Positions 1 to 7,220 of a DNA stretch of 9,734 nucleotides are shown piece by piece. This stretch comes from a virus (lineage: Duplodnaviria; Heunggongvirae; Uroviricota; Caudoviricetes), in IMG/VR virus record IMGVR_UViG_2681813004_000016, positions 1 to 9,734 of that record. One strand, 5' to 3'. The position numbers were made by a program, and so were the translations under genes. Positions within the stretch are counted from its first letter, which is position 1. Every line of letters starts with the position of its first letter. Under the pieces are notes generated by a model that saw nothing but the letters and a program-made list of their open reading frames with translations, was not told the origin of the DNA and did no database searches.

Positions 1-613
<613 letters not shown>

Positions 614-810
614 GCAGAAACTCCGTAATGAAGATGAAAAGCGCTCATAACACATCTGTCGGCCAGAAGGCGCGCCTCTGAGTTATCCTACGGACATACC
701 GGGAACAGTGTAATTTCCCGGCAGGAGCGAAAAATTTGAAAGGCGCATCTTACTCTTTTCGCTTTCAAAAAAAGAGTGGTCTTCGCGTTAACACACCGCC
801 CTGAGATGAA

Positions 811-1284
811 TTAGTGATGTTTTGGCTGCACCGCAACATACATTTCGATATCCCAGTACCCATCTTCCGCGCCATTGTTCAAGTAAACCTCGAAGCAGGG
901 CTTTGGTAACATTTCATAAGCACTGTCCTGCAAGAGGCTATTAAAGAACTGATACCAGGGTTTAGCAAAATCATCACCGACTACACGAGCCACCGCCACC
1001 GCATACTGACCACCTAAAATTTCTGTCAGAATGACGCCCTCACTGTTGTCGGGGAGCGTAAAGTTATTCGGCACCGTCACGACGGTGTCGCAGCGTAATT
1101 TTTCGGCGGGTGTTTCATCTGGATTGTCGTAATAGACAGCAACCCACTCCTTCGGCACAATATTTTTGTTATCTACCCACATCATCAACTGCTCAAAGCC
1201 TTTCTTTACCGTCTGTTCCCACGGGCCAACAAGATGGAAACCTGCAACGGTACGTTTATCTTCCTGCTTAATCTCGTAGTTCAT
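811..1284 (-). CDS. sbmC: DNA gyrase inhibitor SbmC (GyrI)
   Basis: 157-aa [27 protein letters not shown]...YVAVQPKHH matches E. coli SbmC in length and sequence as recalled. ATG start with GGAGG RBS; synteny yeeA-sbmC-dacD as in E. coli K-12. Confidence 0.95.
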
Positions 1285-1300
1285 GACGCCTCCACTAACA

Positions 1301-1316
1301 CTGTTTTTATATACAG
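1301..1316. promoter_or_regulatory. LexA (SOS) box CTGT-N8-ACAG immediately upstream of sbmC
   Basis: Sequence caCTGTttttatatACAGta at 1299-1318 fits the LexA consensus TACTGTATATATATACAGTA. It lies about 17 nt upstream of the sbmC start codon. sbmC is a known SOS-inducible gene. Confidence 0.7.
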
Positions 1317-1402
1317 TATAGTTGCAATATTAAAACCACAAGGAATGAGTGTTGATTATGCGAGCAGACTCGCACTCCTGCCAGTCTGCTGCAAAAGAAA
1401 GG

Positions 1403-2569
1403 TCAGGCCTTATGGTGGAAATAATCACTCAGGCGGGAAAACATGCTGCCTTCCCCGACAGATTCCAGGGTAACCAGCGGCCAGTGCGCCACCTGTTTAT
1501 CACGGTCGTAAAGTTCAATTTCCCCTACCCGCTGATGGGCGCTAATTGGCGCGGTGAGTTCTTTACCATCAAGGGTATATTTGGCTTTGATATGTGGAAT
1601 TTCGGCTTTCGGTAGCACCATCCAGAACTCTTGTTCCGTTCCCAGAGCGATATTTTCTTTATCACCATACCAGATGCGTTCCGTACCGACCTTTTTCCCA
1701 CGGTGCAAAATTTGCACCGTAGTAAAGTTTTGTTGCCCCCAACGCAGTAATTTTCTTGCCTCTTCCTCACGACCTTTTGCACTGTCAGCACCCATTACCA
1801 CTGCAATGAGGCGACGCTGCCCGTCTACAGCCGAAGCAATGAGATTAAACCCAGCACCAGAAGTATGACCCGTTTTCAGGCCGTCAACATTCATGGTTTT
1901 ATCCCACAATAACCCGTTACGGTTTTGCTGGGTGATACCGTTCCAGGTGAGGCTTTTCTCACTGTACATATGATAAAACTCGGGCTCGCCGTGGATGATA
2001 GCGCGAGAAAGCACAGCTAAATCATAAGCCGAGCTATGCTGGCCAGGTGCATCCAGACCATGCACTGTTTCAAAATGCGTATCCTTGAGATGCAGCTTCT
2101 CGGCATAGTTGTTCATCATTTCAACAAACTGCCGTTGCCCACCGGCAATATAGTCAGCCAGTGCAACACAAGCGTCATTTCCGGAATCCACAATTAAACC
2201 ACGGCTTAAATCACGTACCGATACGCGATCGCCCTCTTTCAAAAACATCAGTGAAGAACCGACAAACACCGGATTATCTTTCGCCCACGCATCACGCCCC
2301 ACGGTGACAATATCGTCCGGCGTAATGCGATGACTATCGATAGCGCGATCCACGACATAGCCCGTCATCAGCTTTGTCAGGCTGGCGGGATTGCGCTGTT
2401 GATGCTCATTACCCGCGGTGAGAATCTGACCGGTAGTGTAATCCATCAATACCCAGGACCCGGCATGAATCTCTGGAGGTTGAGGTGAAAAAGGGATGTT
2501 TTCCGCCGCAAAACCAGACGATAAATTAAAAACGAACAAAGAAGCAGCAATAATAAGACGGCGTTTCAA
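1403..2569 (-). CDS. dacD: D-alanyl-D-alanine carboxypeptidase DacD (PBP6b)
   Basis: ORF translation ...RRLIIAASLFVFNLSSGFAAENIPFSPQPP... with SxxK (ASLTK), SGN and KTG motifs, ending DYFHHKA. Matches E. coli DacD. The ORF track starts at TTG 2573-2575 (390 aa); the second TTG at 2567-2569 has GAGG 6-7 nt upstream and gives the 388-aa length recalled for DacD, so I call 2569 as the start. Confidence 0.93.
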   Translation of the reverse strand: MKRRLIIAASLFVFNLSSGFAAENIPFSPQPPEIHAGSWVLMDYTTGQILTAGNEHQQRNPASLTKLMTGYVVDRAIDSHRITPDDIVTVGRDAWAKDNPVFVGSSLMFLKEGDRVSVRDLSRGLIVDSGNDACVALADYIAGGQRQFVEMMNNYAEKLHLKDTHFETVHGLDAPGQHSSAYDLAVLSRAIIHGEPEFYHMYSEKSLTWNGITQQNRNGLLWDKTMNVDGLKTGHTSGAGFNLIASAVDGQRRLIAVVMGADSAKGREEEARKLLRWGQQNFTTVQILHRGKKVGTERIWYGDKENIALGTEQEFWMVLPKAEIPHIKAKYTLDGKELTAPISAHQRVGEIELYDRDKQVAHWPLVTLESVGEGSMFSRLSDYFHHKA

Positions 2570-2777
2570 CAGCAAACCCTCAGGTGTTTCAAATAGCTGT
2601 TCTTTTTACGGAAATACTTATGAACTGGCTGGAATAAAGTGCAAGAAAATGTGACTACTATCTCATTTTTATCTGACATGAACTGTTGCCACTCGCTGCC
2701 AAATTGTCGCGCTAAAGCTGATTAGCACGGTGATATTTGATACTCTGGCAGACAGCAGAAATAACGGATTTAACCTA

Positions 2778-2840
2778 ATGATGAATGACGGTAAGCAACA
2801 ATCTACCTTTTTGTTTCACGATTACGCGCAACACCCCTGA
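2778..2840 (+). pseudogene. sbcB: Exonuclease I (sbcB) 5' remnant: first 16 native codons, then foreign sequence and stop
   Basis: ATG ATG AAT GAC GGT AAG CAA CAA TCT ACC TTT TTG TTT CAC GAT TAC translates MMNDGKQQSTFLFHDY, the SbcB N-terminus as recalled (native continues ETFGTHPALDRP...). Here it continues AQHP then TGA at 2838-2840. Divergent from dacD as in K-12. Homology breaks at about 2825/2826. Confidence 0.75.
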
Positions 2841-2912
2841 GAACCGCCATGAACAAGGGTTTCATGATTTGTGATTTTAGTTTGGTACGCAATTTGGTAC
2901 ACAACACAATTT

Positions 2913-3158
2913 TCACTTCAGCGGGTAGTCATCAAACTCACCATAACGAGCAGCGTTAATGATGATTGGTTGCGAAACAGGAACGTGAGAACCGTCTTCG
3001 TTCTCTACATAAACCTGAATCTGGTTTTCAGGATTTACCGGGTCAGTGTCAATTTTTCCGATATAAATTTTGCCATTGGCTACGGCTTTAAAAGAACGCG
3101 CCATAGTGAAGAGTTGCGAAGGCATGCTTACCACAACATTGGCTGTAATGTCTGTCAT
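2913..3158 (-). pseudogene. P22-type tailspike (gp9) N-terminal head-binding-domain fragment, truncated after about 70 codons
   Basis: [70 protein letters not shown] matches the P22 tailspike N-terminus as recalled ([74 protein letters not shown]...). It then diverges to [11 protein letters not shown] and stops. Lies downstream of ant on the same strand, as in P22. Confidence 0.7.
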
Positions 3159-3216
3159 TTAATTTGCTCCAGATACAAGGAATCGCCGCAGCATGGCTAC
3201 GGTGAATTTTGGGCAT

Positions 3217-3239
3217 AAAAAAACCCAGCCGAAGCTGGG
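3217..3239 (-). terminator. Rho-independent terminator downstream of ant
   Basis: Plus strand reads aaaaaaa-CCCAGC-cgaa-GCTGGG; on the minus strand this is a GC stem with a 4-nt loop followed by UUUUUUU, sitting 20 nt after the ant stop codon. Confidence 0.75.
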
Positions 3240-3258
3240 TCGTTGCGTTGGTTATCTG

Positions 3259-4173
3259 TCAGTAGTTATGTACTGAAGGAGGTAATTCTTTATTCTTAAG
3301 TCTCATCCATGCGGAAAGATTCGTTGGTCCGTCTGGCTCATTGATATCAACATCTCGTGTGTGGTTTATTAAAACGTCTCTCGCCATTCCAATAACATAC
3401 GAGAACTCATGACCGTAGTCGTAGCATCTGCAGGAATAGTTCGATTGAATTTGCTTTAGCGCCGGATACAGTTCGCGGAATAATGCCTGTGAGCGGTTGG
3501 CATAATCCCATAACCATACAAGACTGTCTGTTTCTTTTGCGGAAAGCCCGTTGAGCTTCTTCTCTTGTTTGCCGATTAACTCTCCTTCAAGCGGAACGCG
3601 AGCAGCAAGTGACAGAGCTTCGGTAAACTGCTCCTCGCTGATTTCTTTATATGAACACCCAAAATGAGATTTCAGTGACGACCACATGGTGATCATCGCC
3701 TTCGCCTGTTTTTCTTTTGGCAGAGACTGACCGCGACTCATGACGAGTTGTTTAATGGCTTCCTGCTGCTCTTTGGTTATTTTGCCCGGCAACGCCTTTT
3801 TAGCTTTCGGTGTATTTCCGTAAGACCCCGTTTTACGAATGGATGGCAAAACTTCAGCTGTCACCCATTTGCGGAATTTGTGCGGGACTGAACCTTTATT
3901 GACGGCATCACGGCAGCGCAGAACCAATGTATACATACCTGATTCGCTCACAATGCTTAAATTCTGCTCACCGCCAAGGGTGTAACTTAAAGTTACTCCC
4001 TTCTCATCGTCATCAAGTGCAGTAAGCGCCTTGCGTGAGTTAGTCAGAGTTAAAGCATCACAAACATCTTTTGCTACAAACCACGGCGCACCGCACTTGT
4101 TGATGACGCGGATTTCACTGTCGCCGAATTTGAAGATGGTGAAATCGTTTTGTGCCTTTGCTATACTTTTCAT
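3259..4173 (-). CDS. ant: Phage antirepressor Ant (Bro-N/KilA-N-like N-terminal domain)
   Basis: 304-aa ORF. N-terminus [30 protein letters not shown] is a typical Bro-N-type antirepressor motif. Sits immediately downstream of an Arc-like gene and opposite a divergent Mnt-like gene, the P22 immI arrangement. Confidence 0.85.
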
Positions 4174-4246
4174 GTCAATATTTCCCGATCAGATTTGTTG
4201 ATGTAGAAGCCTCGCCAGTTCCCGCTGTCGGGGCTTCGTTATTTTT
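4174..4246 (+). ncRNA. Predicted sar-like antisense RNA covering the ant RBS and start region
   Basis: Candidate plus-strand promoter inside the ant 5' codons: -35 GTGAAA 4139-4144, 17-nt spacer, -10 TATACT 4162-4167, putting the start at about 4174. Plus-strand hairpin GAAGCC(4206-4211)/GGCTTC(4232-4237) with inner CCCG/CGGG stem, followed by TTATTTTT (4239-4246). Predicted RNA is about 70 nt and antisense to the ant RBS, as described for P22 sar. Confidence 0.4.
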
Positions 4247-4406
4247 AGAGAGCATTCCGCATTTTCTCCCGGTACTTCAACCACCAAGCAAGTCCCTGAA
4301 CCAACACTGAGTTTTCTGACATCCCCTCTTCCTTAGCGATGCGTTTCACCTCCTCCTTAAAACGGTACGGATACCGAAGAGTTGTCTTCACTTCATTCTT
4401 TTCCAT
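4245..4406 (-). CDS. arc: Arc-like ribbon-helix-helix repressor (53 aa)
   Basis: Not in the ORF track (under 60 aa). Minus strand ATG 4404-4406 to TAA 4245-4247 translates MEKNEVKTTLRYPYRFKEEVKRIAKEEGMSENSVLVQGLAWWLKYREKMRNAL. Same size and RHH pattern as P22 Arc (recalled ...PQFNLRWPREVLDLVRKVAEENGRSVNSEIYQRVMESF...). AGGAG RBS 7 nt upstream; directly upstream of ant. Confidence 0.7.
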   Translation of the reverse strand: MEKNEVKTTLRYPYRFKEEVKRIAKEEGMSENSVLVQGLAWWLKYREKMRNAL

Positions 4407-4427
4407 TGATCACTCCTTTTTACGTAA

Positions 4428-4489
4428 TGGCATTATGCCTTGAAAGCAATATGCCATCATTGAATATAAATAGCAATATGCCATCATTG
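4428..4489. promoter_or_regulatory. immI operator/promoter region: 11-bp palindrome plus two perfect 18-bp direct repeats between divergent arc-like and mnt-like genes
   Basis: Palindrome GGCATtATGCC at 4429-4439. Direct repeats AGCAATATGCCATCATTG at 4445-4462 and 4472-4489, 27 bp apart. The 7-mer ATGCCAT (reverse complement ATGGCAT) occurs three times. A candidate plus-strand promoter overlaps them (-35 TTGAAA 4440-4445, -10 TATAAA 4465-4470). Confidence 0.45.
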
Positions 4490-4508
4490 TTTTTTTTGAG
4501 GTGATGTT

Positions 4509-4829
4509 ATGGCTGAAAAGCAGGTTAAAGATTACGAAAAGTTTGTTGTGCGTTTCCCTGACGGGATGAGGGACGCGATTGCGGAGAGAGCCAAACGAAA
4601 CGGGCGCTCTATGAACTCAGAGATTGTGCAGATACTGGAAGATGCCTTGAATGCAGAAAATACTCTTGGGGAAATAGCAGACAAAATCAACAGCGTCTCG
4701 GTTCCGCTAAATGTTGATGCGCTAGTTCAACTTCAAGCCCAGGTTATCGCCATGCAAAAAGAAATACAGGAAAAGTTCAGAGAGCAGAACGAAAAGTTGA
4801 GAGAACTACTAAATAAAAAACCCACCTGA
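4509..4829 (+). CDS. mnt: Mnt-like ribbon-helix-helix repressor with C-terminal coiled coil (106 aa)
   Basis: N-terminus MAEKQVKDYEKFVVRFPDGMRDAIAERAKRNGRSMNSEIVQILEDAL carries the Arc/Mnt signature NGRSMNSE; C-terminal half is heptad-rich. GAGGTGA RBS upstream of ATG 4509. Divergent from arc-ant. Confidence 0.7.
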   Translation: MAEKQVKDYEKFVVRFPDGMRDAIAERAKRNGRSMNSEIVQILEDALNAENTLGEIADKINSVSVPLNVDALVQLQAQVIAMQKEIQEKFREQNEKLRELLNKKPT

Positions 4830-4836
4830 CGGTGGG
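4811..4836 (-). terminator. Rho-independent terminator downstream of tail gene L (overlaps the 3' end of the mnt-like gene)
   Basis: Plus strand aaataaaaaa-CCCACC-tgac-GGTGGG; on the minus strand the stem is followed by UUUUUUAUUU, 10 nt after the L stop codon (4846-4848). The mnt-like stop TGA (4827-4829) lies in the hairpin loop. Confidence 0.6.
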
Positions 4837-4845
4837 CATAATCCA

Positions 4846-5544
4846 TTACTGCGAAAGTTTGTTAATGGAAAGGAAGCCGCCAAAGTTGCCGACGTTATTG
4901 CGAAACTTACAGCCACTCAGGCATTTGCTGCATTTATCCTTCGTGATATCGGACGTTGGCTGGTCATATTCATCCGCGACAGCCGGACCGTGATAACCGC
5001 ACTCATCGCCGCGATAGGTCCAGGTGCAGGTGTTGGCCAGCATGATACGTCCCGGAAAAACAGCGCCATCTGTTTCCGTCGGCGTGGACAGTACAAAGGA
5101 GGCACTCACCGCGCTCAGTTCGCTGCACTGCTCGATGCGCCAGCGGCTGATCACCTCCTGCTCCGGATCGGCGTCACTGTTTCCGTTAACGAAGTTCACC
5201 GCATCCAGAAAACGGGCGTAAACCTTACGCCGGACCACCGTTCCGCCGACCAGACTCTGCATATCTTCCACCATACCGGTGACCATGCCGTGCAGGTTAG
5301 AAACCGTCAGTGTCGGACGGGCAGCACTGCCCTTGCCGTTCAGTTCAAATCCCGTCCCCTGAATGGGATACGCCTGATACTGTCGCCCCTGCCAGGTGAC
5401 CGGCTCACCTTTTTCGTTCTGCTCATTACAGAAAAAATAACGTTCTCCACCGACCTCTGTCAGGTCGATTTCCCAGAGCACCACGCTGGCAGACTGCTCC
5501 GCACGGGTGCATTCATTCAGTGTTTCCTGCCGGATATCCTGCAT
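4846..5544 (-). CDS. L: Lambda-type minor tail protein L
   Basis: 232-aa ORF MQDIRQETLNECTRAEQSASVVLWEIDLTEVGGERYFFCNEQNEKGEPVTWQGRQYQ...FGGFLSINKLSQ matches phage lambda gpL in sequence and length as recalled. Its start overlaps the M stop (ATGA). Confidence 0.95.
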   Translation of the reverse strand: MQDIRQETLNECTRAEQSASVVLWEIDLTEVGGERYFFCNEQNEKGEPVTWQGRQYQAYPIQGTGFELNGKGSAARPTLTVSNLHGMVTGMVEDMQSLVGGTVVRRKVYARFLDAVNFVNGNSDADPEQEVISRWRIEQCSELSAVSASFVLSTPTETDGAVFPGRIMLANTCTWTYRGDECGYHGPAVADEYDQPTSDITKDKCSKCLSGCKFRNNVGNFGGFLSINKLSQ

Positions 5545-5873
5545 CAGTTCACCACCTGTTTAAACTCTGCGCTGAACTCAACACGCAACATACTGACCTG
5601 CGACGACCATTTTGCGCAGGTCACCTTTATCTGCCTGTAACCATAAGGCGGCGTCCACAGAAAGGCCTTCCAGCCCCCGTGCTCAGCCAGAAACGACTCC
5701 AGCGCCGTGGCCTCCTCACGGGAGACAGACAGCGTCACGCTGTACGTTTTCAGGTCAGCGTTCAGCCCGGCAGGCGCACGCTGGGAATAGCCATCACCAA
5801 AGCGCACCTCCCTGACGGAAGGGGCCGATGTCACATCCATACCGGGTTTCACTTTCCAGCGGAAGGTTTTCAT
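5544..5873 (-). CDS. M: Lambda-type minor tail protein M
   Basis: 109-aa ORF MKTFRWKVKPGMDV...WTPPYGYRQIKVTCAKWSSQVSMLRVEFSAEFKQVVN matches lambda gpM as recalled; H-M-L order and overlaps as in lambda. Confidence 0.95.
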   Translation of the reverse strand: MKTFRWKVKPGMDVTSAPSVREVRFGDGYSQRAPAGLNADLKTYSVTLSVSREEATALESFLAEHGGWKAFLWTPPYGYRQIKVTCAKWSSQVSMLRVEFSAEFKQVVN

Positions 5874-6247
5874 CGTCCACCTCCGGAGAACAGGCCACCA
5901 TCACGCATCTGTGTCTGAATTTCATCACGGGCACCCTTGCGGGCCATGTCATACACCGCCTTCAGAGCAGCCGGACCTATCTGCCCGTTCGTGCCGTCGT
6001 TGTTAATCACCACATGGTTATTCTGCTCAAACGTCCCGGACGCCTGCGACCGGCTGTCTGCCATGCTGCCCGGTGTACCGACATAACCGCCGGTGGCATA
6101 GCCGCGCATCAGCCGGTAAAGATTCCCCACGCCAATCCGGCTGGTTGCCTCCTTCGTGAAGACAAACTCACCACGGTGAACAATCCCCGCTGGCTCATAT
6201 TTGCCGCCGGTTCCCGTAAATCCTCCGGTTGCAAAATGGAATTTCGC
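5870..6247 (-). pseudogene. H: Tape-measure protein H, C-terminal fragment (about 125 codons), 5'-truncated at the IS903 junction
   Basis: C-terminal translation ...GGFTGTGGKYEPAGIVHRGEFVFTKEATSRIGVGNLYRLMRGYATGGYVGTPG...MRDGGLFSGGGR matches the lambda gpH C-terminus as recalled. Upstream of about 6247 the frame reads IS903-derived sequence, so the first about 35 residues of the 160-aa track ORF are not H. Confidence 0.85.
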
Positions 6248-6779
6248 CGCAGACAACTTCATGTGTGTTGCTGTCAACAGCAAGATGCAACTTTCGCCAG
6301 ATACGACGGCGCTCTTTGCCGTGCTTTCTGACTTTCCATTCGCCTTCACCAAAGACCTTCAGCCCGGTGGAATCAATCACCAGGTGTGCGATTTCACCCC
6401 GGGTGGACGTTTTGAAACTGACATTAACCGACTTTGCCCGCTTACTGACACTGGTGTAATCCGGGCAGCGCAACGGAACGTTCATCAGGGCAAAAATGGA
6501 ATCAATAAAACCCTGCGCAGCCCGCAGGGTCAGCCGGAATACGCGTTTAATCACCAGAACGGTGGTGATGGCGAGATCAGAATAGCGCTGGGGCCTTCCT
6601 CGTGATGAAGGCGTTGCCGACTCATACCAGGCCTGAATCGCCTCATCATCCAGCCAGAAAGTGAGGGAGCCACGGTTGATGAGAGCTTTGTTGTAGGTGG
6701 ACCAGTTGGTGATTCTGAACTTTTGCTTTGCCACGGAATGGTCTGTGTTGTCGGGAGGATGCGTGATCTGATCCTTCAA
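6248..6779 (-). pseudogene. IS903-family transposase, N-terminal about 177 codons, 3'-truncated (track ORF 6195-6779 reads on into H-derived DNA)
   Basis: Transposase similarity runs from the TTG start at 6777-6779 to ...LAVDSNTHEVVC. The last 17 residues of the track ORF (GEIPFCNRRIYGNRRQI) are out-of-frame readthrough of tape-measure DNA. Confidence 0.85.
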
Positions 6780-6811
6780 CTCAGCAAAAGTTCGATTTAT
6801 TCAACAAAGCC
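6248..6811 (-). mobile_element. Truncated IS903-family insertion sequence (IS5 family): left inverted repeat plus 5' part of the transposase gene only
   Basis: Plus-strand 6793-6811 cgatttattcaacaaagcc is the reverse complement of the IS903 terminal inverted repeat GGCTTTGTTGAATAAATCG as recalled. The adjacent ORF encodes ...KQKFRITNWSTYNKALINRGSLTFWLDDEAIQAWYESATPSSRGRPQRYSDLAITTV..., the IS903/IS102 transposase N-terminus. Homology ends at about 6248, where lambda H sequence begins, so only about 564 bp of a roughly 1 kb IS remain. Confidence 0.9.
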
Positions 6812-7220
6812 CCTTAGAGCTAATTTCAGAACCACCAACACCCTCAATATAGTTTGATCTCCATGGTGACTCTTCGTGTGTCATGTTCCTCAGTTTCCAG
6901 GCAGAAAATTGCCCAAAAACATCCCAGACTTCTTCTAATAACTCTAACTGTTCTTCGCTGAATTTTTCAGCATCAAAAGACTCTGGAGAAGGGATAGCGC
7001 CATTACCATATTGTTTATAACGGCGATAAAGCTCAGGGACAACAGGGCCATGCATCCAAGCTTCCATCTTATTCTGAAAAAGAGGCTCGCCAAGCAACGC
7101 CAATGAAAAACCCTGAGCATAGTAAACAAGCTTTTGTAATTTTAAATTAGAGATTGTGTCACCGCTATCCTCGTCACACCGCGACAGGAAGTAGTCGGCG
7201 ACATCAAAACAAGTAAGCAT
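6801..7220 (-). CDS. Panacea / SocA-like (DUF4065) antitoxin-domain protein, 3' end clipped by the IS903 insertion
   Basis: MLTCFDVADYFLSRCDEDSGDTISNLKLQKLVYYAQGFSLALLGEPLFQNKMEAWMHGPVVPELYRRYKQYG... fits the SocA/Panacea pattern (hLKLQKLLYhAQGh...GEPLh...hEAWhHGPVhP.LY). Likely start is ATG 7218-7220 (GGAGG 7 nt upstream); the track used GTG at 7226. The last two codons and the stop (6801-6809) are IS903 sequence, so the native C-terminus is lost. Confidence 0.6.
   Translation of the reverse strand: MLTCFDVADYFLSRCDEDSGDTISNLKLQKLVYYAQGFSLALLGEPLFQNKMEAWMHGPVVPELYRRYKQYGNGAIPSPESFDAEKFSEEQLELLEEVWDVFGQFSAWKLRNMTHEESPWRSNYIEGVGGSEISSKGLC

Follow-up and report, generated by a model that had tools for sequence, protein, structure and literature searches.

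Does a decayed prophage in Escherichia coli still hold a complete antirepressor switch? The DNA analysed here, called the window throughout, is the whole stretch of 9,734 nucleotides that makes up positions 1 to 9,734 of the IMG/VR virus record IMGVR_UViG_2681813004_000016. An earlier, sequence-only reading had described in it a module of the kind found in the immI region of phage P22, complete and in the order mnt / arc-ant-gene 9, and all of the named parts were found intact. We estimate with a probability of about 80% that the cassette is an "ant moron" of the immI type, intact and self-contained, which keeps a gene of the Ant family silent. The reading is carried by the integrity of the genes and their family membership, by the structure of an antisense RNA with covariation, by the conservation of promoters and operators, and by the co-variation of two operator sites (A and B) with the recognition strand of a repressor. 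From these observations we infer the binding, transcription and antirepressor activity of the cassette.

The cassette and its two ribbon-helix-helix proteins

The cassette consists of the following features, in which RHH stands for ribbon-helix-helix:

3222-3241, minus strand: terminator-like hairpin with T-run downstream of ant (terminator scan); P22 has a terminator in the same place after ant
3259-4173, minus strand: ant, encoding 304 amino acids, with Bro-N (residues 20-110) and P22AR_C (residues 205-276)
4139-4167, plus strand: Psar-like promoter GTGAAA-17-TATACT, TG-extended, inside ant nucleotides 7-35 (promoter scan)
4174-4246, plus strand: sar-like RNA of about 73 nucleotides, with hairpin 1 (4174-4202), terminator hairpin (4206-4237) and a U-run to 4246
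4245-4406, minus strand: arc-like gene, encoding an RHH protein of 53 amino acids; first gene of the ant operon
4429-4439: site C, perfect palindrome GGCATTATGCC (GGC-ATTAT-GCC, of the form GGC-N5-GCC), at about +3 to +13 of predicted Pant
4445-4462: site B, 18-nucleotide repeat AGCAATATGCCATCATTG, overlying the -10 of predicted Pant
4448-4476, minus strand: predicted Pant, TTGCTA (4476-4471), 17-bp spacer ending in TGG, CATATT (4453-4448), read from the sequence
4460-4487, plus strand: predicted Pmnt, TTGAAT (4460-4465), 16-bp spacer ending in TGc, CATCAT (4482-4487), read in the same way; overlaps Pant
4472-4489: site A, second copy of the 18-nucleotide repeat, overlying the -35 of predicted Pant and the -10 of predicted Pmnt
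4509-4829, plus strand: mnt-like gene, encoding 106 amino acids, with an N-terminal RHH domain, an AmrZ-type strand (K11/V13/R15) and a long C-terminal helix
4820-4837, minus strand: hairpin with T-run that would stop minus-strand transcripts from gene L (terminator scan)

The ant, arc-like and mnt-like genes are each preceded by a ribosome-binding site. The Arc-like protein has the same length as P22 Arc (53 amino acids), to which it is 38% identical over 29 residues (pairwise E value 3e-5), and it matches PHROG 582 at 1.6e-10. A word-index protein search returned just 11 close relatives. Two relatives, P0013 and P0016, exceed the Pfam cut-off for Arc with 29.0 and 39.1 bits, and the profile of the family matches structures of the P22 Arc repressor at 1.8e-6 to 1.9e-9; due to these relatives and the profile match, we accept the protein as a member of the Arc family. 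Its AlphaFold model (predicted local distance difference test, pLDDT, 79.7) was compared with Foldseek, and the best 30 matches are almost all RHH proteins (VapB26, ORF56, Arc, CopG, AmrZ). The recognition strand of the protein is of the K-T-R type.

The mnt-like gene is divergent from arc-ant. The RHH domain of its product is found by the Pfam Arc family at 1.6e-19 and matches 1mnt at 3.2e-6, and the N-terminus is 47% identical to that of P22 Mnt. No sequence similarity was found between its C-terminal domain, which is longer, and the C-terminus of P22 Mnt (the tetramerisation domain); in the structure model it contains a long helix at 69-102 with a pLDDT of about 88-94. Across the RHH domain the protein is 53-56% identical to AmrZ, and the recognition strands, KFVVRFPDGMR in the Mnt-like protein and KFVVRLPEGMR in AmrZ, are identical in K-F-V-V-R. 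The Arc/Mnt similarity and the RHH fold that had been proposed for both small proteins were found. None of the families of NCBIfam scored over its curated cut-off for the Ant, Arc-like or Mnt-like protein.

The C-terminal domain of the Mnt-like protein is variable among its relatives, apart from the tail NKKPT (region 4815-4837), which is near-invariant. This tail is encoded by AAA AAA CCC ACC TGA, and the same DNA forms the A-run and the 5' arm of the terminator hairpin for the opposite (L) strand. Since the codons of the tail have this second use, its conservation may reflect conservation of the cassette boundary at the DNA level.

Promoters, operator sites and their predicted readers

In the control region of 102 bp between the divergent genes (4407-4508), the motif RGCAWTATGCC is found without mismatch at 4429, 4445 and 4472 (centres 4434, 4450 and 4477). 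When up to one mismatch is allowed, there are 7 copies in the window (0.70 expected), a number reached in 0 of 200 shuffles. Sites A and B form an exact direct repeat of 18 nucleotides with the core AGC-AATAT-GCC. The Oarc and Omnt operator sequences of P22 are absent from the cassette, and one motif in three copies is found instead; the operator cluster described earlier is thus real, but its sequences are not those of P22.

The three-site layout, the 27-bp spacing from B to A and both predicted TG-extended promoters, which are divergent and overlap, are conserved in the window, Edwardsiella phage GF-2 (79% identity), Escherichia phage PhiR5_1 (66%) and phage 2851. Over these four loci, the promoter consensus is TTGCyA-17-CATwwT for Pant and TTGAAw-16-CAyCAT for Pmnt.

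Further candidate sites were rejected. The perfect palindrome TTACGTAA at 4420-4427, considered as an Arc operator, is not kept in GF-2 or PhiR5_1. Two copies of the motif with one mismatch inside ant (3477-3487 and 3499-3509), considered as auxiliary operators, are attributed to coding conservation, because the same nucleotides are present in nearly all loci whatever the type of Mnt. As a separate observation, locus L156, which belongs to the K-M-R class introduced below, has, in addition to three operator copies, repeats of TTTATAGCT/TGATAGCT that follow one another just before the start of the Mnt-like gene.

In the crystal structure of AmrZ, residues K18, V20 and R22 read two 5'-GGC half-sites that are separated by an A/T-rich linker of 5 bp (PMC3325190). 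Site C has the geometry of the AmrZ site TGGCAAAACGCC. Judged by its identical recognition strand and by the presence of a GGC-N5-GCC site, the Mnt-like protein and its control region would be AmrZ-like. To see which repressor reads which site, natural swaps were collected from 80 further loci fetched by alignment of the Mnt-like protein. The class of the repeated motif shifts with the class of the Mnt-like strand (K-V-R, K-N-R, K-T-R, K-M-R or R-N-R). Sites A and B track this strand in all four informative swaps, and the Arc type can change without effect on them. On the basis of this co-variation, A and B were assigned to the Mnt-like protein, which is the predicted reader of these sites in the promoter core. 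Site C is a candidate operator for the Arc-like protein.

The predicted arrangement is the opposite of that in P22, where the site proximal to arc is Omnt. If the operator logic of P22 applied, site C would be the operator of the Mnt-like protein, and the Arc-like protein would act on A and B to repress both promoters. The positions would then mirror those of P22, with Omnt proximal to arc and Oarc in the promoter core; only in site C are both AmrZ-type GGC half-sites perfect, and the K-T-R strand of the Arc-like protein resembles the K-V-R strand of the Mnt-like protein, so that both could read related sites. However, A and B are the same in spite of a change in Arc type both between GF-2 and phage 2851 and between loci L149 and L163, and they are altered where only the Mnt-like strand differs, that is, between the window and locus L125 and between the window and phage 2851. 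In the latter pair, the Mnt-like proteins are 97% identical and differ just in three residues (E10D, V13N and V14L), all of which lie in the recognition strand, and the A/B sites are AGCAATATGCCATCAT in the window versus GGCCATAATGCCACCAT and TGGCAATATGGCACCAT in phage 2851. With these swaps at hand, we consider the P22 arrangement unlikely.

We thus prefer the Mnt-like protein as the reader of A and B. By binding these repeats over the -35 and -10 of Pant and over Pmnt, this protein would keep ant off and regulate its own gene. If Pant fired, the first product of the operon, the Arc-like RHH protein, would feed back on the operon, with site C as the candidate target. A more far-reaching proposal is that a few substitutions in the strand, together with matching three-site operators, create heteroimmune "immI specificities", i.e. 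switches that are blind to each other, with the Mnt-like protein on the promoter core in reversal of the P22 order. The intact Bro-N/P22AR_C Ant of the window, with its own K-V-R repressor as the sole guard, could then act in trans on the repressors of co-resident lambdoid or Shiga toxin (Stx) prophages of other specificities. This is a tentative idea, and we rate it as rather doubtful.

The antisense RNA and the Ant protein

At the arc-ant junction, a predicted two-hairpin RNA of the sar type lies antisense to ant and is supported by covariation, in agreement with the antisense signature that had been noticed in the sequence. The Rfam model for sar (RF00262) gives a full-length match at 4174-4246 on the plus strand, which exactly spans the gap between arc and ant and lies opposite ant; its score of 28.5 bits (E value 0.005) does not reach the Rfam gathering score of 43 bits. 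The stretch folds as two hairpins followed by a U-run (fold z-score -4.94), and the loop of hairpin 1 carries an anti-Shine-Dalgarno sequence. A covariance model of our own, built from 13 variants with the window left out, scores the sar of the window at 64.3 bits (E value about 1e-11) and finds exactly one match in each of the 43 sources searched, including Stx phage 2851, Kapi1, GF-2 and PhiR5_1.

Helix 1 occurs in at least nine different sequences across the loci, always as the same hairpin of 24-30 nucleotides that starts right after the start codon of ant. In the alignment, 88.9% of the cells are paired, compared with at most 47% when the partners are slid, and 10 of the 21 pairs have changed on both sides; the observed value is reached in 0 of 500 shuffles. 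These counts were taken from an alignment fitted by the model and are somewhat inflated, which weakens them as support. A fold-by-fold comparison that involves no fitting agrees with the covariation of the fitted alignment. A plain MAFFT alignment mis-registers helix 1, and RNAalifold then shows helix 2 only; the covariance model and re-alignment were used instead.

The Psar-like promoter has the same offset from the ATG of ant as the annotated Psar of P22. Its -10, TATACT, is kept in 86 related loci regardless of the N-terminal type of Ant because it sits inside the conserved protein start M-(K/N)-S-I-A. In the public records of phage 2851 (L002 5041-6045), GF-2 (L087 1227-2102), PhiR5_1 (L088 1348-2097) and Kapi1 (L086 2601-3545), the annotated starts of ant lie further upstream, so that the gene spans the sar region and runs into arc. 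The conserved start, the -10 of Psar and the sar matches favour the shorter open reading frame. The antisense RNA would start just upstream of the ATG of ant, from a promoter within ant codons 3-12, and would pair with the ant leader including its ribosome-binding site, so that translation of Ant is limited as by the sar RNA of P22.

The ant product contains the Pfam domains Bro-N (3.5e-19) and P22_AR_C (2.2e-26). P22 Ant consists of P22_AR_N and P22_AR_C, and the Ant of a sister remnant at dacD of KilA-N and P22_AR_C. Consequently, the designation of ant as a P22-type gene holds for its C-terminal half, whereas its N-terminal half is Bro-N. Among 80 viral contigs, identity in the last 146 residues is 92-98%, with shuffling of the N-terminal domains and of the regulators upstream. 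With Bro-N joined to a swappable C-terminal module, the Ant of the window belongs to the domain-swapping "Bro network", which is known from earlier work (PMC10111431).

This membership is the basis for an explanation in which the 304-amino-acid protein is no antirepressor, but a DNA-binding regulator of the Bro network or a protein with another phage function, and in which the RHH/sar circuit controls something else. The Bro-N domain in place of P22_AR_N, the free exchange of P22_AR_N, Bro-N and KilA-N on a near-identical C-terminal domain and the precedent for such shuffling speak for it. On the other hand, residues 137-304 (168 amino acids) are 65% identical to P22 Ant, with the last 110 or so nearly identical, and the protein matches PHROG 245 ("anti-repressor Ant") at 4.6e-107. 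The wiring and position of the gene equal those of P22 ant, and Kapi1, a P22-like phage of E. coli that also has a sar match, carries the same Ant type as the window. We therefore regard a function other than antirepression as quite improbable. That the two RHH genes form a toxin-antitoxin or plasmid-partition type of module instead of an immunity circuit is hardly credible: RHH proteins are often antitoxins, the Mnt-like protein matches FitA-like_RHH at 3e-8, and "partition protein" and "plasmid stability protein" are among its PHROG and JGI labels, but a toxin-like partner is lacking, synteny with P22 mnt/arc/sar/ant is complete, the covariation of sar links the circuit to translation of ant, and the P22 Mnt record itself bears the misleading label "partition protein".

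As an antirepressor, Ant, which is composed of Bro-N and P22AR_C, is presumed to bind and inactivate the immunity repressors of lambdoid phages. P22 Ant acts on the repressors of P22 (C2), L, lambda and 21 (PMC3121763), and by analogy it is plausible that the Ant of the window could de-repress co-resident prophages.

Several points weigh against an intact immI-type cassette. Both predicted promoters, Pant and Pmnt, have weak -10 hexamers and lie below the threshold of a simple promoter scan. On its own, the Arc-like protein is under the gathering threshold of Pfam PF03869 (17.5 versus 20.4 bits), and its family is tiny, with 9 clusters at an E value of 0.001 or less among 1.84 billion representatives in an exhaustive search. 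The swaps are split over site C, two being in keeping with Arc and two with Mnt. For the N-terminal half of Ant, no similarity to P22 Ant was found, and our literature search revealed no experiment on a protein of the Bro-N/P22AR_C type; experimental work on the function of the P22AR_C domain was not found in it either. In lysogens of the related phage Kapi1, mnt transcripts were undetected (PMC12922286). Finally, a cognate immC repressor was not seen in the part of the remnant that lies within the window.

Setting, origin and relation to known systems

The window contains the yeeA-sbmC-dacD region of E. coli (811-2575), followed by a composite prophage remnant. From the far side leftwards, the remnant consists of an NleG effector gene, a fragment of a P22-type DNA-transfer protein, a Panacea/SocA-domain gene, a transposase fragment of the IS5 family, the end of a tape-measure gene, the tail genes M and L, the cassette, and a P22-type tailspike fragment that borders on dacD. 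The immediate neighbours of the cassette are:

2913-3158, minus strand: gene 9 fragment of 81 amino acids, P22-type tailspike with the head-binding domain only (Pfam Head_binding 8.7e-40)
4846-5544, minus strand: tail gene L, lambda-type, full length
5544-5873, minus strand: tail gene M, lambda-type, full length
5870-6352, minus strand: lambda-type tape-measure gene, last 160 codons (C-terminal), cut by the IS5-family fragment
6195-6779: IS5-family transposase fragment, which truncates the tape-measure gene

The gene 9 fragment, located downstream of ant, is 80% identical to residues 1-70 of P22 gp9. The surrounding structural genes had been described as fragmented, which is true of gene 9 and the tape-measure gene but not of L and M. 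The Panacea/SocA-domain gene (antitoxin-like, 6801-7226) has lost its last 12 or so codons at the IS5 joint when compared with the sister locus, and is an orphan, as the 139-amino-acid gene that follows it there is missing from the window. At 8386-9033, a gene for a type III effector of the NleG family was found (PF06416, 5.8e-38), and an open reading frame at 9243-9644 has a prophage tail-fibre C-terminal domain (PF06820); both are part of the end of a neighbouring lambdoid prophage. A scan of the whole window with Rfam at the gathering level and a tRNA scan gave no matches.

The sister remnant at dacD (E. coli Z1323CEC0010) matches the window at 61-3592 and 6812-9732 with 98-99% identity. 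The segment 3218-6250 matches a lambdoid prophage of E. coli PK8241 at 95.5%, a prophage in which tail genes L and K flank the cassette. Both matches cover the conserved 3' part of ant (3218-3592), which places one joint at about 3592, in the part coding for P22AR_C; the right joint (6195-6812) is at the IS5-family fragment. Since the flanks match the sister remnant, the cassette matches a lambdoid prophage and a joint lies in ant, the cassette seems to have come in through homologous recombination inside ant, with an IS-associated joint at its other end. It probably did not survive in place, as the sequence-only reading had supposed. Most likely, the cassette in the remnant is silent and was recently acquired by recombination.

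In the sister locus, the position of mnt (L004 7474-8283, equivalent to window positions 4509-4829 or thereabouts) is occupied by a gene for a LexA-family protein of 269 amino acids (HTH_3 and Peptidase_S24), and the upstream open reading frame of 57 amino acids is different, as is the Ant type described above. This would be another way to control an ant gene of this kind, and possibly one that is SOS-cleavable.

The full control region is present in 9 of 5426 complete E. coli genomes, and the control region of 346 nucleotides recurs unchanged in four other loci. Arc-like and Mnt-like proteins identical to those of the window are encoded in E. coli KCJ3K291 (L089 6120-7690, GF-2-like) and PK8241 (L001 6042-7612). 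The same moron is thus seen in three tail architectures, namely in a GF-2-like prophage among genes for baseplate and tail, in a lambdoid prophage between L and K, and in the window beside a P22 gene 9 fragment.

Parts of the cassette have already been annotated piecemeal in public records, as "Arc family DNA-binding protein" and "P22AR C-terminal domain-containing protein". The sequence-only reading correctly annotates a phage control cassette of a kind already known, here in a prophage remnant; the co-variation of strand and operator and the unannotated sar homologues stand out. Below the Rfam threshold, the sar of P22 has homologues, and each Ant cassette that we examined contains one, those of Stx phages included. 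The co-variants of recognition strand and operator form a natural series for an AmrZ-like RHH repressor, with which RHH specificity could be studied. Where a remnant keeps its antirepressor gene intact, this gene is a candidate for cross-talk between prophages, a subject that bears on the induction of Stx phages.

The cassette resembles P22 immI in gene order and strands, in the divergent RHH gene mnt, in the predicted divergent promoters that overlap, in a predicted sar of about 70 nucleotides that runs from -1 of ant, and in the terminator after ant that is followed by gene 9. It differs from immI in its proteins, with Arc 38% and the N-terminus of Mnt 47% identical and no sequence similarity in Mnt's C-terminal domain, and in its operators. 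For P22-like phages (epsilon34, L, ST64T, HK620, Sf6, CUS-3), ten types of "ant moron" have been reported in sixteen genomes (Villafane et al. 2008, PMC2629481). Like them, the cassette is a variable unit with its own regulation that precedes the tailspike gene, and such units often have mnt/arc/ant/sar; its type was not among the types that could be compared. Unlike the moron of P22-like phages, it is joined on its other side to lambda-type L/M/H' and not to gene 16.

An Ant cassette between L and K is also present in the phages 2851, YYZ-2008 and 1717, in Stx2a_WGPS phages and in the PK8241 prophage. The latter has the same cassette, including L and M, at 95-98% identity. Phage 2851 shares the layout of A and B, but has another Arc type (K-N-R strand), an Ant of the P22_AR_N type, a different third site and a Mnt-like protein with the K-N-R strand.

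AmrZ of Pseudomonas aeruginosa (PDB 3QOQ) likewise uses an operator core of the form GGC-N5(A/T-rich)-GCC, which it binds as a dimer of dimers. However, it is a global regulator encoded in the chromosome and not an immunity repressor of a phage, and the C-terminal domains of the two proteins are unrelated. The trans-acting antirepressors of the Gifsy and Fels prophages (Lemire et al. 2011, PMC3121763) follow the same idea, a module apart from the immunity region with the repressors of other prophages as its targets; those of Gifsy differ in that they are small, controlled by LexA and unrelated in sequence to the Ant of the window.

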